In this document: one piece after another, positions 9,304-14,997 of the stretch
Numbering within the stretch: the stretch's first letter is position 1
How the letters are laid out: the number at the start of each line of letters is the position of its first letter
Assembly: GCA_030698565.1 (NCBI GenBank)
Contig: JAUYJS010000005.1
Span: forward strand, 154,497 to 218,496
Origin: Candidatus Shapirobacteria bacterium
Lineage (GTDB): Bacteria; Patescibacteriota; Microgenomatia; UBA12405
Reading direction: 5' to 3'
Length of the DNA: 64,000 bases
The notes under the pieces: model-generated
Databases searched by the model: none
Told to the model about the DNA's origin: nothing
The model's input: only the letters and a program-made list of their open reading frames with translations
Translations under genes and position numbers: made by a program

Positions 9304-10167
9304 TTAGAAAATTTTGCCTTGTTGGCTATATATTAAAAATATAAATATAATTAAAAGAAAACCTAAATGGCCAGCTGAGGAACCAGATATTCGATGCGTA
9401 CCATTTCTTAAAGTTATATAAGCATCGACTAAAAGAGCAAAGATTAAAATTAAAAACATGAGAGATCCGAGGAGTTTGCTGATAAATAACGGACTAATTG
9501 CTAATCGAGTGGATGTTTGGGCTAAAACTTGTGATTCATTACTTAAACCAAAAGGATGAGAGTTTAATTCGATTTCTTCCGTGGTATTGTTGGCAATAAT
9601 TCCGTCAACTGGAGTACCAAAATGTTGAGCCACCAATGTTGTTTTGATACCACTTATGACTCCGTCGGCCACGCCGATACCGATTTCTTTATATTTAGGG
9701 TTGACGATATTTTCTTTGTGTGTTGGCGATTGCATCCAAGCAGTCATCATGGATTCGGTATCATAATAATCTTTGGCGAGGTTTTCCCCTGCGACCGTAT
9801 ATTCATAATTTTGAGACTTAAAAAAATCCCAAGGAGTTTTGCCTTCTGGTGAAGTGTGGGCCCAATAATTATGAGTAAACATATCTTGAGTCTTATTTTT
9901 AGCGGAATTTGCTAATAAAGACCTAAAGTGTAGTGGTGGTAATCCATTTTTTTGCCTTTCTAAATTAGTTGAATAAAATACTTTAGCTGCGGTAATTTCG
10001 GATGAATAACCTAGAACACCAGGCTTAACTATAGTAAAAGATTTAATAAGTGTTTGATTGAAAAGATAGAAAATAATCAAAAAACTTAAAAAATGCGGAC
10101 GCAAGATACTGGCGCGATGGCTATTTCTTTCCTGGGGTACAAATAAACTTGATAGCAAGTGCTTCAC
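9304..10167 (-). CDS. CAP/SCP domain membrane protein
   Basis: TNLER..NGL..L, YWAHTSP, AGENLA, WMQSPTHKENI, EIGIG; N- and C-terminal TMs. Confidence 0.9.
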   Translation of the reverse strand: MKHLLSSLFVPQERNSHRASILRPHFLSFLIIFYLFNQTLIKSFTIVKPGVLGYSSEITAAKVFYSTNLERQKNGLPPLHFRSLLANSAKNKTQDMFTHNYWAHTSPEGKTPWDFFKSQNYEYTVAGENLAKDYYDTESMMTAWMQSPTHKENIVNPKYKEIGIGVADGVISGIKTTLVAQHFGTPVDGIIANNTTEEIELNSHPFGLSNESQVLAQTSTRLAISPLFISKLLGSLMFLILIFALLVDAYITLRNGTHRISGSSAGHLGFLLIIFIFLIYSQQGKIF

Positions 10168-10181
10168 AAATTTAGTATAGA

Positions 10182-10772
10182 TTAATTAAATACCTTTGCC
10201 AAGATAAAATAAATTAAAATTACTGCACCAACACCAAAAACTATTTTTAGAGAAAAGAAATGTTTTATTCGATCAAATAGATTTGGGGAAGAGGTAGTAC
10301 CTAGTACCTCAGCACAATCAAACTTATAATTTAAGTCAAAATTAGTGGTTAAGTTTTGAAAATCGTTCCCAGTGTTTGAATTTAAACTAGCCGACCAGTC
10401 AATGGTTTCAGATTCATTAGGTTTGATGGTATTTAATGTAATATTTTTCTGAGTCAATATGTCACTCAATCGACCAGAAAATAAAATATTACTGGTTGAT
10501 AATATTTTCATCTCGATTGATTTGGATAATTTGTCGTTCCATCTTTTTCCTTTCACGATTTCTAAATTTAATTTGCATTGACTTGATTGAAGATTAATTA
10601 TCTTTAAATGACTAGTAACCTTAAATCCTGGATAAATATTATCTTGAGAAAATAAGGGTAGATTTGAAGGACTCGAACACTCACCTTCTGATTGGCAAAT
10701 TATATTTATATCGTTAGCATAAGCAAACGGAGTAAAAAGTAAAAATATAAATATAAAGATAATTAATTTCAT
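10182..10772 (-). CDS. secreted TasA-like-fold protein with C-terminal membrane anchor
   Basis: Sec signal (FAYA), LFSQDNIYPG...GNDFQNLT resembling the TasA/camelysin core and the 13168 protein; C-terminal TM. Confidence 0.6.
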   Translation of the reverse strand: MKLIIFIFIFLLFTPFAYANDINIICQSEGECSSPSNLPLFSQDNIYPGFKVTSHLKIINLQSSQCKLNLEIVKGKRWNDKLSKSIEMKILSTSNILFSGRLSDILTQKNITLNTIKPNESETIDWSASLNSNTGNDFQNLTTNFDLNYKFDCAEVLGTTSSPNLFDRIKHFFSLKIVFGVGAVILIYFILAKVFN

Positions 10773-13159
10773 AAATTAAAAATTTTACTGAGAACTTGGG
10801 TACTGCCAATGTCTAAAATCTGAGTTAAATTAACAACGGCGGTTTGACCTATGTCTAAGTCGGGGGTACAAGTTCCTCCCGTCGAACATGTGCCTAAAAA
10901 CAACTCTCTGTCTGTTTTGGAATTTTCGATACTTTGCTTTTTAATTTCACCATAAATTCCTTTTTCTAACCCGAGGCTTGAATAAATAATTTCATAAGTT
11001 AAGTGATCAACATTTGCCGGAATATTGGAAACCGTAAAAGTAATTTTTTTTGAAGACGAGTTGTAGTTGAGCTGAGTGTCGATCGAATTTTTGGTATAAC
11101 TCCAAGTACCAACTCCGTCGGGAGTTCTTTGCCAATCAGAATTGTCGTTATTATCAACATAAGTAGTCGAATCAATAATATTATTTTCTTTTATTAACGA
11201 AATTGTGTCATGATCAGAATCAAAGAGAAAATCAAATTCGGATAGACTAAATAAATAAGCACTGGTTGGACCAACATTAATATTGGTTAAGGTTTGTGTT
11301 TGGCCAGATATATTTTTTATAAAATAGTCGTCAAGAAAAAAATCATTAGAGGTATTGTTGAATAGTTCTATCCCTGGTGAATTAAAAAATATATGGTTTA
11401 AAACAACTTCCGGTTGAACTATTATTTCAATTTGATTATTTTTCTCTTCATTGCCAGCCAAATCGGTAGAGTTAAAATTTAACAGGTTATCCCCAATTAT
11501 TAAATCTGGAATGATGGATGTATCAAATACTCCACTACCTAAATCTTGGGCAATTAGTTGGATGGTAGAAGTTTCTCCAATACGTAAATCAGTGGTCGAT
11601 ATTTTTATATCATCTATGTCGGTCCAAGCGTATCCAGAAGAACCGACATTGTTAACTCCAAAAAATAATTTTAATGGTTGGTCGTAATAGTAATTTGATA
11701 GTGGTTTACTAATGGAGCACCAACCTGAGTCGACTGGGTCACTAAAACTTCGGCCAAAATTAATTATATTTTCTAATAACTGATCATTTTGACCTAAAAT
11801 TTGAACATTAAAATTACTAAAATCATAAGTGTCGCTATTAAAAGATCTAAATGAGAAAGAGACTGTGGGGCGAAGGTTTTGGGGTAAGGAAAAGATTTGA
11901 TAGATTCCGTCTTGGACAGGTTGATCGGTGGTTGGTTCTTTAAAACCCAAAGAAAACATTTCTGAGCCAGTAGTGGGTAAAACCGTTTCTCCTACCCCTG
12001 AATCTGATGAAATTACATGGTGGTCTCCGACTGAACTTGATATGTTCCAACCCAATAACCCTGATTCAAAACTACCATTTTCTAATAAATTTTGACCGGA
12101 CCAGTTCTTAATTGAAAAAGAGGTAGAGTCGATAAAGGTAGTAGGTGGTTTGGTGTCTATTTGAACTAAATATTTTTTTCCTTCAGAGTCAATATCCGTT
12201 TCGTGTCTACCGTCTAGGGTGTGGGCAACTGTATAAAAAGTATATAAACCGTCTTCGTCGGCATTAAAATTAAAACTACCACTTTTATTTCTAAAATCTA
12301 GATTGTCTGGACAAATAAAATTTGAATCCAGATTTATAGAATAACAAAGTTGAACATAGTCCAAATTTGCCACAGAATTTAATGTGTAACCGATATTGAG
12401 ATTGTTTGTATTTACAACCGAATCTTCATTAGTAATTGAAGAAAAAACAGAAACCCAAAAACCAGTTGAAAAAGAGTTGTTTTCTATTGATGAGGTATTA
12501 GAAAAAAATGATTCGGTGTTCGGTATTTGACCAAAAGTAAATGATAAAAAAGGTATAAATATAATTAAAAGATTCAAACTACTTTTCTTGGGTTTATTTT
12601 TTTTCTTTATTTTGTATTTTTTAATTACCTCTTCTTCAATTGCTTTTTTTAATTGAAATAATTGGTTGATAAAAACATAAATTGTAGGTAATAAAATCAA
12701 AAACATAAATCCTTTTGGGGTACGCACCCAGAGAGATAAATAACCCAAAAAAGGAAAGTCAAAAATTACCTTGCCCTTAATTTGTTCGATTTTAATTGGC
12801 TCTAAATCTGGGGAACTGTTGGCGTCGCCTTTGGTTCTGAAAACCATATTTGATTCGTTTTTATCGACACTAATTACTCGATGGGTAATTAGTAGGTCTG
12901 GTTGGGTAATTGAGCTAAAAGTAACAACATCTCCCTCTTGTGTATTTTCTGTTTTATCGGCCGAAACAAATATTAATGATCCAGTTTTTATGGTTGGTTC
13001 CATAGAACCAGACATGACACGAAAAATGTAAAACTTCTTTGTGGGAGTGAAAGTAGTTAATATTATTATTAACAATGCCGATATTAAAACTAAATTTAAA
13101 ATAAAGTTAATGGTTCGTAAACTTATTTGAACAAAGTGCCTAAAAATTTTTATTATCAC
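10769..13159 (-). CDS. sipW: SipW-type signal peptidase I fused to a large secreted region with an internal SipW-class signal (CBM-like and lamin-tail-like segments)
   Basis: VMSGSMEP, ITHRV, TKGDAN..D S26B motifs; then basic stretch + TM + TESFFSNTSSIENNSFSTGFW; NLLENGSFE; IELFN; WQRTPDG. Confidence 0.85.
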   Translation of the reverse strand: MIIKIFRHFVQISLRTINFILNLVLISALLIIILTTFTPTKKFYIFRVMSGSMEPTIKTGSLIFVSADKTENTQEGDVVTFSSITQPDLLITHRVISVDKNESNMVFRTKGDANSSPDLEPIKIEQIKGKVIFDFPFLGYLSLWVRTPKGFMFLILLPTIYVFINQLFQLKKAIEEEVIKKYKIKKKNKPKKSSLNLLIIFIPFLSFTFGQIPNTESFFSNTSSIENNSFSTGFWVSVFSSITNEDSVVNTNNLNIGYTLNSVANLDYVQLCYSINLDSNFICPDNLDFRNKSGSFNFNADEDGLYTFYTVAHTLDGRHETDIDSEGKKYLVQIDTKPPTTFIDSTSFSIKNWSGQNLLENGSFESGLLGWNISSSVGDHHVISSDSGVGETVLPTTGSEMFSLGFKEPTTDQPVQDGIYQIFSLPQNLRPTVSFSFRSFNSDTYDFSNFNVQILGQNDQLLENIINFGRSFSDPVDSGWCSISKPLSNYYYDQPLKLFFGVNNVGSSGYAWTDIDDIKISTTDLRIGETSTIQLIAQDLGSGVFDTSIIPDLIIGDNLLNFNSTDLAGNEEKNNQIEIIVQPEVVLNHIFFNSPGIELFNNTSNDFFLDDYFIKNISGQTQTLTNINVGPTSAYLFSLSEFDFLFDSDHDTISLIKENNIIDSTTYVDNNDNSDWQRTPDGVGTWSYTKNSIDTQLNYNSSSKKITFTVSNIPANVDHLTYEIIYSSLGLEKGIYGEIKKQSIENSKTDRELFLGTCSTGGTCTPDLDIGQTAVVNLTQILDIGSTQVLSKIFNL

Positions 13160-13167
13160 GAATGTTA

Positions 13168-13737
13168 TTAAAACGTCATTGTTGGGTCGCCGTCTAGCTG
13201 AACACCAGCCCCTGATTGGACTGTGTGAAATATTAAATTTGAACTGTCGATTTTTCCTTGAAGATCATTGTTGACTGATGATTTTAGAAGAGCGTCAATT
13301 CGATAATTTTTAGTTGTTCCTGGGTCAACTTGAGCCATGAGTTCCGACCAATTTGTTAGGAAAAACTTATAATCCTGCCAATCTATTATTGTTTCGTTCG
13401 AATCCTTATCGAAAACTGATAGCTCTAAATAGCTTTCGTCTAATTCTGAATTATAAAATGGACTATTTATTAAAAATTGATTAGATATTCCAAAATATAA
13501 ATCGGCATTTATAGTACCATCATATTTAATTGATATGTCTTGTGATTGTGGTTCACCGGGAAGTAGGTTTTCAAAATTTATAGGTGAAGTTAAAGATGAA
13601 TCAAGCTTGACACTCCCTGTTGTGAAAGTATTGCCGGAAATTATTTTAGTATCACTAAAATAAGCGATAACTGCCCCGGTGGTACCAATTAAAAGGAGTA
13701 TTAAAACAAGAAAACTGACAAATATTTTTTTATTCAT
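13168..13737 (-). CDS. TasA/camelysin family protein with SipW-cognate signal peptide
   Basis: Signal followed by AYFSDTKIISGNTFTTGSVKL; NLLPG, NDLQG motifs. Confidence 0.85.
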   Translation of the reverse strand: MNKKIFVSFLVLILLLIGTTGAVIAYFSDTKIISGNTFTTGSVKLDSSLTSPINFENLLPGEPQSQDISIKYDGTINADLYFGISNQFLINSPFYNSELDESYLELSVFDKDSNETIIDWQDYKFFLTNWSELMAQVDPGTTKNYRIDALLKSSVNNDLQGKIDSSNLIFHTVQSGAGVQLDGDPTMTF

Positions 13738-13774: not shown

Positions 13775-14131
13775 TCAATGGGTCAGTTTTATAATTTCTC
13801 GAATTATCAAGCTACCTATCAATATTCCCACTAAATCAATAAAGGTGTCGCTTATTTTACCTTCCCTTCCAGGAACAAATTGTTGATGAAATTCATCTGA
13901 GAGTGAGTAAATATAAGCAATCAAAATTGAATATTGATATTTTTTAAAGGCTGAATATAAAAAAATACCCAATATGGCATATTCAATTAAATGCAAACTC
14001 TTGAAAAATAAAAGACTTTGGACTTGGCCGTTAATAATACCCGTGGTAGAACGGGAAGAGAAATAAAATATTACAGCCATCCATAAAACTGAAGGTAAAA
14101 ATCGGATTAAATTTTTAAAATTTAATTTCAT
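13775..14131 (-). CDS. VanZ family membrane protein
   Basis: WMAVIFYFSS, HLIEY, SDEFHQQFVPGR, D..ID. Confidence 0.9.
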   Translation of the reverse strand: MKLNFKNLIRFLPSVLWMAVIFYFSSRSTTGIINGQVQSLLFFKSLHLIEYAILGIFLYSAFKKYQYSILIAYIYSLSDEFHQQFVPGREGKISDTFIDLVGILIGSLIIREIIKLTH

Positions 14132-14997
14132 GTGTCAGATTTTTTTAGAAATAACGGTATTAAAAGTAGAATACCACCCGAAATTATAAAAATCATTGGT
14201 AAGTAATTTGATTTCTTTTCGTTTTGATTTTTTATTATATTTACTGGGGTTGGGCTAATTTCAGAAACAACGGTCTCACCTAAAACATATTCGCTTGTTG
14301 GAGTAATCAAATCAGAACTCGAAGTTGCCTCTGGACTTGTTGGTGTTGGTGACGGTGATATTGGACTTAGGGTTGGTGTGGGTGTTTTTGTTGGTGTGAA
14401 TGTTGGTGACGGAACATTAGTTGGTTGTGGAGTATTAGTGGGAGTATTGGTGGGTGTGGGTGAAGGAGGCGGATTGGAAATATTTAAATAAACAGAATTA
14501 CTTAAAATAGCATTACCAGAACTGGTGTATTTGGCTGATTCAATTATTTTGCAAGTTATTTTGCAACTGCCATTAGCAGATGAGAACTTAACTCGAATAG
14601 TGATATTTTGACTAATGTTTCCAGAAGAATCTGTTGAAAATTTTGGCATATTTTGCCAACTGCCGTTATACCCATTAAGCCAATTAGAATCATTTTGTAC
14701 CTCGACGGAATAATTATCACTACCAACTCCTCCGTAACATTTAAAATAATAGTCGGTATCGTTTTTCCCATGAGAAAAAATAAAATTTAATAAAAAAGAC
14801 TGCTCCTTAAATTCATCGCTCGAGTTTAAGCTTACTACCAAGGAAACAGCTGTGCTGCCAATTGTCGGCGTTGGAGCGATTGTAATTGTGGGTGTATTTG
14901 TAGAAGTTGGAGTCAATGTTGGAATATCAGTCACAGTTTGACCAAATATTGGAACAGGAAATATTATTCGTAATAAATATAACAATAAAACAAACAC
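14128..14997 (-). CDS. Pro/Thr-rich surface protein with C-terminal TM
   Basis: PT repeats flanking a beta-rich domain; hydrophobic C-terminus + KK. Confidence 0.75.
   Translation of the reverse strand: MFVLLLYLLRIIFPVPIFGQTVTDIPTLTPTSTNTPTITIAPTPTIGSTAVSLVVSLNSSDEFKEQSFLLNFIFSHGKNDTDYYFKCYGGVGSDNYSVEVQNDSNWLNGYNGSWQNMPKFSTDSSGNISQNITIRVKFSSANGSCKITCKIIESAKYTSSGNAILSNSVYLNISNPPPSPTPTNTPTNTPQPTNVPSPTFTPTKTPTPTLSPISPSPTPTSPEATSSSDLITPTSEYVLGETVVSEISPTPVNIIKNQNEKKSNYLPMIFIISGGILLLIPLFLKKSDT

Follow-up and report, generated by a model that had tools for sequence, protein, structure and literature searches.

A predicted TasA-like donor-strand pilus in Candidatus Shapirobacteria, encoded by three genes, one of which fuses a SipW peptidase to the candidate tip protein

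We analyzed a 64,000-nucleotide stretch (here, the window) of contig JAUYJS010000005.1 from the 846-kb, 97% complete genome of an ultrasmall member of the Patescibacteria, Candidatus Shapirobacteria (assembly GCA_030698565.1), and found in it an operon of three genes that probably specifies a complete TasA-type donor-strand pilus, comprising a tip initiator, a shaft, and a membrane-anchored terminator. The first open reading frame (ORF1) codes for the predicted shaft subunit, the second (ORF2) for a SipW signal peptidase fused in frame to a secreted protein, here called the passenger, and the third (ORF3) for a TasA-fold protein that lacks the donor strand (Table 1). The first-pass annotation of this DNA had proposed an acceptor-only anchor, a shaft, and a donor-only cap; the fold of ORF3 minus its strand and the wide recurrence of the gene order make this assignment of roles the probable one. 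All three genes lie on the minus strand at the coordinates first given, with 8 nucleotides between the end of ORF1 and the start of ORF2 and with the stop codon of ORF2 and the start codon of ORF3 overlapping as ATGA, which bears out their tight coupling. Scans for promoters and terminators performed about as they did on shuffled sequences (30 versus 26.7 and 2 versus 3.2 hits, respectively), with no terminator-like site between the three genes. DNA of the locus was matched in groundwater metagenomes, and there were no RNA data sets among the matches listed.

Sequence profile searches showed that ORF1 passes the cut-offs of both PF12389 (28.6 bits; cut-off, 22.5) and the cognate-SipW signal model TIGR04088 (24.2 bits over the stretch 10 to 43; cut-off, 19), in agreement with the SipW-class signal and TasA-like core originally read in it. 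The profile of its family retrieved TasA structures 5of1 and 8aur from the PDB at an E value of 1e-7. It falls far below the cut-off of the Bacillus TasA equivalog NF046066 (13.8 bits; cut-off, 450), and on these profile scores ORF1 is a distant relative of Bacillus TasA and not its orthologue.

The third protein retrieved no match in Pfam or NCBIfam, all 37 members of its family gave only scattered weak matches in Pfam, and a PDB sequence search with the family profile returned a single match (E value, 0.26). Profile-profile comparison and structural modeling point to its affinity. The profile of the 37 members aligned with that of 29 shaft proteins in hhalign at 98.5% over 113 columns, and the model of ORF3 (predicted local distance difference test [pLDDT], 88.5) matched the TasA fibre structure 8aur at Z 9.6 (root mean square deviation [rmsd], 3.0; 128 residues aligned, starting from TasA residue 43; 48,161 chains searched). 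A second pass over 1000 chains matched the TasA monomer 5of2 at Z 11.1 (rmsd, 2.4; 129 residues aligned; chain range, 40 to 234); 5of1 followed at Z 10.7, the next unrelated match stood at Z 6.8 to 7.0, and archaeal AbpA (7ueg) at Z 6.7. The donor strand of TasA comprises residues 28 to 38 (PMC9674648; published accounts are cited throughout from those portions of their text that were available), and ORF3 as modeled is a TasA fold that begins where this strand ends. The TasA fold, on whose presence in ORF3 the first-pass annotation had made its reading depend, is therefore there, minus the donor strand, and the model, strand analysis, and hydropathy agree with its description of a TasA-like core behind an ordinary signal peptide and ahead of a C-terminal membrane segment.

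Of the 3267 representatives of the ORF3 family, the best 150 include none that begins like a donor and 126 with a hydrophobic segment at the C terminus. An LPxTG motif before the C-terminal helix was found neither in ORF3 nor in 149 of these 150 closest representatives. The label "sortase-free" that had been given to the system thus holds for ORF3 itself; it does not extend to the genome, which codes for three sortases and other LPxTG proteins, nor to 6 of 20 inspected loci of other Patescibacteria, where the donor-less protein carries LPxTG. Most members of the family are longer than ORF3; they comprise an FN3-like domain (read by eye and not a family match), a stalk, and one to three helices, and some of them a lamin-tail domain as well. 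Structural look-alikes of ORF3 in the Atlas come mostly from Bacillota, and in one cluster of these PF12389 is present in 74% and a Gram-positive anchor in 41% of the members. We also observed a "VLG" motif (ORF3 residues 157 to 159) ahead of the C-terminal anchor in 112 of the 150 relatives; in the same genome it occurs in 4 of 11 anchored proteins and in 24 of 652 other ORFs, which we note only as a lead.

To follow the donor strand across relatives we derived a strand matrix from 35 of the 43 shaft ORFs and applied a threshold of 10 bits. This was exceeded by 23 of 44 passengers (median, 11.5; passenger of ORF2, 14.0; the 44 include one SipW fused to a base protein and devoid of the strand) and by none of the 37 ORF3-type proteins (median, -18.8) or 172 controls. 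Relatives of ORF3 are present in 44 of the 101 genomes of the family. Regions were taken around the 40 best-scoring ORF3 places besides that of the window, yielding 42 ORF3-type genes in 44 loci; these were picked mostly via ORF3 and so cannot serve to count operons without it. A passenger lies directly upstream of 36 of the 42 genes, being fused to SipW in 19 of these, and beyond it follows a shaft gene in 31 of the 36, the other 5 meeting the end of the contig or locus. The remaining six ORF3-type genes comprise two at contig ends, one (L024) that is in fact adjacent to a passenger, and three true exceptions. Across the phylum, the ORF3 profile matched 36 of 301 genomes, some of them by way of shaft or related genes. 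Loci were inspected in 20 of the 35 matching genomes other than our own, and most of them show the order shaft, sipW (free or fused), and donor-less protein. The three genes thus co-occur in the same order widely, both within the family and in other Patescibacteria, as the original reading would have it. A second type of operon in the family consists of a TasA-like gene, sipW, a TasA-core protein whose first strand begins with Asp (A|DL or A|DF) and not with an aromatic residue, and a second sipW (L051:5871-8331, L064:3100-5346, L071:2922-4564, L077:12311-14539, and L085:10403-12891), possibly with one peptidase per substrate class.

This distribution bears on an alternative in which the passenger, in the role of TapA, begins a TasA-like matrix fibre that is then released, and ORF3 is a closed, self-complemented bystander at the cell surface. 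The model of ORF3 does resemble a closed monomer, some operons lack ORF3 and some ORF3 genes lack a passenger, and BsaB, a TasA-like neighbour in Clostridium perfringens, was not found linked to BsaA polymers in the available text of PMC11580942. TasA monomers are themselves self-complemented, though, and open when a donor comes (PMC9674648). Moreover, it is exactly the donor strand that is missing, in 37 of 37 and 150 of 150 proteins, and the gene stands last in the operon, features for which an unrelated surface protein would have no need. We therefore regard this alternative as quite unlikely.

The N-terminal part of ORF2 is an intact SipW, as had been noted, joined without a stop codon to a second signal. 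It passes the cut-off of TIGR02228 over residues 20 to 164 (114.2 bits; cut-off, 51.85) and scores below that of the Bacillus SipW equivalog NF046067 (114.6 bits; cut-off, 190). Its family profile matches SEC11 structures, and it displays the motifs SGSMEP at residue 50, THRV at 92, and TKGDANSSPD at 109, within which lie S52, H93, and D118, which we take to be the catalytic residues after the SEC11/SipW family. Named homologues of ORF2 include proteins of Candidatus Shapirobacteria and Patescibacteria. The second signal would end at S217|F218, leaving a passenger of 579 aa. One could instead suppose that the passenger stays uncut, with the second signal serving as a membrane helix, so that SipW and passenger form a platform holding a fibre of reversed polarity, the far end of which is capped by the donor-less protein. 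TapA has been described as membrane or wall associated (PMC10151520, PMC9674648), and the repeat-tailed donor-less relatives without a C-terminal helix (see below) would suit a distal cap. Against this, donor strands in the TasA fibre need a free N terminus (PMC9674648), the A-x-A/S site ahead of the strand is retained in fused forms while free passengers have an ordinary cleavable signal, and ORF3 of this family is membrane bound at its C terminus. We consider an uncut platform highly improbable.

The passenger is beta-rich with no TasA core, as the first-pass annotation had it: its profile aligns with that of the shaft over the first 20 columns only, and it gives no alignment with the ORF3-family profile. 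In the model of the passenger (pLDDT, 87.2; predicted template modeling score, 0.83), residues 1 to 20 are unpaired, with a pLDDT of about 51 to 54 for the first strand. Foldseek with the whole passenger returned only generic multi-beta-sandwich matches; TasA was not among the fold matches listed (50 in one search), by itself a weak test, and the TapA beta-sandwich (6hqc) gave no match in sequence or fold searches, in which the passenger domains were not folded singly. Taken together, sequence and model suggest a TapA-like protein to the extent that a TasA-like first strand follows the signal peptide and heads a body without the TasA core. The domain at residues 348 to 524 (mature 131 to 307) adopts in the model a CBM/MAM fold, with matches of that fold reaching Z 15.9, among them CBM 8xmz (Z 15.5; rmsd, 2.3; 135 residues aligned) and many other CBMs at Z 12 to 15; such a fold alone shows no ligand. 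PF19077 (Big_13) matches somewhere in 10 of the 36 members of the passenger family, and PF00932 is present in 18 of the 36, its match in ORF2 lying under the cut-off (E value, 8.6e-5). Passengers are modular, the smallest (L073, L074, and L084) consisting of the strand and the C-terminal domain with its Cys pair, which is retained even in these minimal forms, and a few (L081 and L087) have a TasA-like core behind the strand. The Cys-pair domain had no clear PDB match by profile and none from the Atlas feature search; structural look-alikes in the Atlas come from Roizman-, Davies-, and Gottesmanbacteria (TM score, 0.73 to 0.84). The same domain, which belongs to no known family, has further copies beyond the passengers: one in a lipoprotein predicted in this genome outside the window (G000:C3:6921-7154), others in short proteins from many genomes of the family, and others again toward the N terminus of giant surface proteins (L061:462-5114). 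Among the 40 strain differences listed out of 229, many cluster at positions 10795 to 10892, yet 7 of the 14 codons changed from residue 756 onward are synonymous, and we do not claim a hypervariable tip end.

Table 1. Features of the predicted pilus operon, in window positions
Feature	Residues	Position	Strand	Basis
ORF1, TasA/camelysin-family subunit, predicted shaft (donor and acceptor)	189 aa	13168..13737	-	PF12389, TIGR04088, family profile
ORF1, predicted donor strand freed by putative cleavage after A25	26-41	13615..13662	-	TIGR04088 stretch, family alignment
ORF2, SipW fused in frame to secreted passenger	796 aa	10769..13159	-	ORF call, TIGR02228, family loci, bridging contigs
ORF2, SipW/SEC11-type peptidase, two membrane helices, S52, H93, D118	1-170	12650..13159	-	TIGR02228, conserved columns, motifs
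ORF2, basic linker (predicted cytoplasmic) and second signal peptide ending T-E-S217	171-217	12509..12649	-	Sequence, family layout
ORF2, TasA-like first strand, predicted free donor strand	218-233	12461..12508	-	Strand matrix, profile, model
ORF2, all-beta domain, probably Ig-like	236-345	12125..12454	-	Model secondary structure
ORF2, jelly-roll of CBM/MAM fold, candidate adhesin	348-524	11588..12118	-	Fold search of model
ORF2, lamin-tail-like domain	583-668	11156..11413	-	PF00932
ORF2, conserved C-terminal beta domain with Cys pair (GTCS...C)	691-796	10772..11089	-	Family alignment
ORF3, predicted terminator and anchor: donor-less TasA fold behind an ordinary signal peptide, with C-terminal membrane helix	196 aa	10182..10772	-	Profile, strand matrix, model
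ORF3, TasA-fold acceptor domain, four conserved Cys	20-156	10305..10715	-	Model, fold search, Cys columns
ORF3, C-terminal hydrophobic helix, no LPxTG	about 175-192	10197..10250	-	Hydropathy scan, motif scan

The fusion of peptidase and passenger is not an artefact of assembly: contigs of runs X2, X4, and X6 span the junction, there is no indel among the differences listed for four runs, and 22 fused ORFs, ORF2 included, occur in the family loci, 21 of which repeat its layout of linker and second signal. The exception, in genome G007 (L068:6234-8452), lacks the second helix of SipW and the hydrophobic core of the second signal while retaining the cleavage site and strand; the proposed three-helix topology would permit the loss of the second and third helices together. 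The base gene of G007 has no signal peptide. Altogether, 31 of the 58 SipW genes in the loci are fused, and the catalytic motifs are retained in 29 of these by pattern and in the other two by eye. On a midpoint-rooted tree of SipW the label fused or free switches nine times, at least four of the switches being forced by starred branches; a single origin is unsupported by this tree, on which gain and loss of the fusion are not distinguishable. Free sipW genes often overlap the start of the passenger, so that a frameshift or a lost stop codon would fuse them, and in L125:7048-8373 (G208) SipW is fused to a donor-less, LPETG-bearing base protein rather than to a tip, which points to operon compaction, with no special mechanism, as the origin of such fusions. 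An in-frame TTG at codon 195 of ORF2 might be a separate start for the passenger; in 10 of the 22 fused ORFs the stretch checked for an internal start is devoid of such codons (ATG, GTG, or TTG). By these sequence comparisons the fusion is optional and recurrent, and the mechanism does not need it. A fusion of SipW to its substrate, or this operon of Patescibacteria, was not found in the literature searched, which left supplements aside and subscription journals mostly uncovered; the peptidase-starter fusion is apparently undescribed.

From the families, fold, strand distribution, and gene order set out above we infer the course of cleavage and docking, the length of the polymer, and the kind of ligand as follows. 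The ORF2 product would insert with three membrane helices, leaving the active site of SipW exposed on the outer face along with the second cleavage site. SipW would then cut at S217|F218, in cis or from a neighbouring molecule, and the freed strand of the passenger would enter the groove of a membrane-tethered ORF1 precursor, much as TapA, a donor-only starter, gives the first strand to the TasA fibre (PMC10151520, PMC9674648). Cutting of ORF1 by SipW would free its own strand for the next precursor, so that new subunits would join at the membrane and the passenger would remain at the outer end; for BsaA, too, growth from the membrane side has been proposed, with SipW acting once strands have been exchanged (PMC11580942). 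ORF3 has no strand to hand to a further subunit, so that growth would end once it had received one, and the fibre would be held by the ORF3 helix. The fusion would set about one starter per peptidase; as for the CBM-like tip, our guess is that it binds a glycan on the surface of a host cell or matrix. A bolder version, which we put forward tentatively and think rather doubtful, has a self-starting pilus polyprotein in which SipW cuts its own adhesin in cis and passes it to the first shaft subunit; each peptidase would then seed one membrane-anchored fibre, and Patescibacteria would possess, in addition to type IV pili, a second host attachment organelle whose glycan-binding tip could be exchanged.

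The length of the polymer could also be minimal, with the passenger, one or a few copies of ORF1, and ORF3 forming a short tethered stalk that displays the adhesin above the cell wall. Given the tight coupling and the lack of a terminator-like site, no excess of shaft is visible from the sequence, and relatives of ORF3 already have long FN3-like and Ser/Thr/Pro-rich stalks. The terminator-site scan did no better than shuffles, however, and the solved relatives of ORF1, TasA and AbpX, build long filaments. The shaft gene is also first in the operon, and the first gene of an operon is usually the one expressed most. A short stalk seems to us unlikely.

Several observations weigh against a complete tip-shaft-terminator pilus, which we nevertheless prefer. 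The donor strand scores below 10 bits in 21 of the 44 passengers, and 3 of the 42 ORF3-type genes stand without a neighbouring passenger although the contig leaves space for one. In G068, a 100% complete genome in 220 contigs, the fused operon is not followed by an ORF3 gene, and a search of that genome detected none. Four genomes (89 to 97% complete) have shaft, passenger, and base with no sipW in the operon and no TIGR02228 match over the cut-off. These operons (L063, L078, L080, and L086, in G048, G058, G072, and G032) have divergent first strands, and a general signal peptidase may serve them. Nor is the donor-less protein a C-terminal anchor everywhere: at 7 of the 20 loci inspected in other families it has a tail of Gly/Asp-rich repeats and lacks a C-terminal helix. 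These TasA-core proteins (L124, L126, L127, L131, L132, L134, and L138) carry GGxGxD repeat tails, which we take to be RTX-like, and their N-terminal helix, which is remote from the A-x-A site, could be an anchor that is not cut off. The model of ORF3 is closer to the self-complemented TasA monomer than to the fibre form (Z 11.1 against 9.6), and its four conserved Cys residues might lock the domain shut; as TasA monomers are equally closed and open upon exchange (PMC9674648), the closed look of the model is undecisive. The first strands of passenger and shaft scored higher within their own operon than across others (32.3 versus 16.7; 0 of 20,000 permutations; n = 29), but this failed a control for kinship by the C-terminal domain (15 better, 9 worse, 2 ties; P = 0.31; n = 26), and we do not count coevolution of the strands as independent evidence. 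Finally, the published precedent for such an anchor, TafF of the haloarchaeal Tat fimbriae (tafi), has its anchoring role without a genetic test in the available text of PMC11821415, the tafi design deriving from AlphaFold and not from knockouts.

That precedent means that a tip-shaft-anchor architecture is already published, in a model with a tip (TafC), an adapter and a shaft (TafE/TafA, TafA being the shaft), and TafF as a terminator with a Sec signal and C-terminal helices (PMC11821415, PMC12337348); what is described here is a bacterial version in three genes, plus the fusion. The two have in common a tip initiator, a strand-donating shaft, a dedicated peptidase (TafD in tafi), and a Sec-exported terminator with C-terminal membrane helices, and ORF3 resembles TafF in its pilin-like fold without a donor strand, its Sec signal, and its C-terminal membrane segment. 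They differ in that tafi uses twin-arginine translocation (Tat) and has seven genes, including those for a regulator and a DUF5305 helper, a divergent pilin fold, and a tip with a TafA-like domain; the word "fused" does not occur in the available text of PMC11821415. The present system is bacterial, of the Sec type and the TasA family, and packs four functions into three genes, and the twin-arginine pair by which Tat fimbriae are recognized is found in none of the ORF1, ORF2-internal, and ORF3 signals.

The tapA-sipW-tasA operon of Bacillus subtilis likewise combines a TasA-family subunit, a dedicated SipW, and a minor starter with a TasA-like strand on a non-TasA body. By contrast, the starter described here forms one chain with SipW, CBM-like and lamin-tail-like domains are among those it carries, and the operon ends in a donor-less TasA-fold membrane base, for which the B. 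subtilis accounts, so far as available, have no counterpart; CapP in B. cereus is another published point of comparison (PMC13082335). The sipW-bsaABC locus of C. perfringens also specifies a SipW-dependent, membrane-anchored TasA-like polymer, for which an LPXTG-bearing TasA-like neighbour has been speculated to be the anchor (PMC7395162, PMC11580942); it may differ in that BsaA is locked by isopeptide bonds, while BsaB is dispensable for polymers and no SipW fusion is reported in the available parts of these accounts. The archaeal bundling pili AbpA/AbpB (7ueg) and AbpX belong to the same donor-strand TasA superfamily. AbpB has been proposed as both starter and adhesin, in a study that lists Patescibacteria among holders of PF12389 and whose available text gives the bundling pili no dedicated peptidase (PMC9245690). 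AbpX loci have predicted tips, SLH and LPXTG anchors predicted to join the fibres, and, unlike the operon here, a ten-helix peptidase fused to DUF5305 rather than to a substrate (bioRxiv 10.64898/2026.01.04.697558).

Other genes on the same strand flank the operon: downstream, one for a CAP-domain membrane protein (window positions 9304-10167) and, upstream, a VanZ-like gene and one for a membrane-anchored Ser/Thr/Pro-rich protein (13775-14131 and 14128-14997). CAP-domain and VanZ-like genes stand beside the operon in several relatives too.

The literature on attachment in Patescibacteria that we searched is centred on the type IV pili of Saccharibacteria, and a role of the present system in attachment to a host is our guess. 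With only three genes, it is the smallest set that would let the tip-shaft-terminator model, which for tafi exists to date in silico, be put to the test in a laboratory host, and the fusion offers a clean way of asking whether a signal peptidase acts in cis on a substrate of its own. Relatives of ORF3 in 44 of the 101 genomes of the family, together with matches of its profile in 36 of the 301 genomes of the phylum, some of which fall on shaft or related genes, suggest that these uncultured cells commonly have a second kind of surface fibre.

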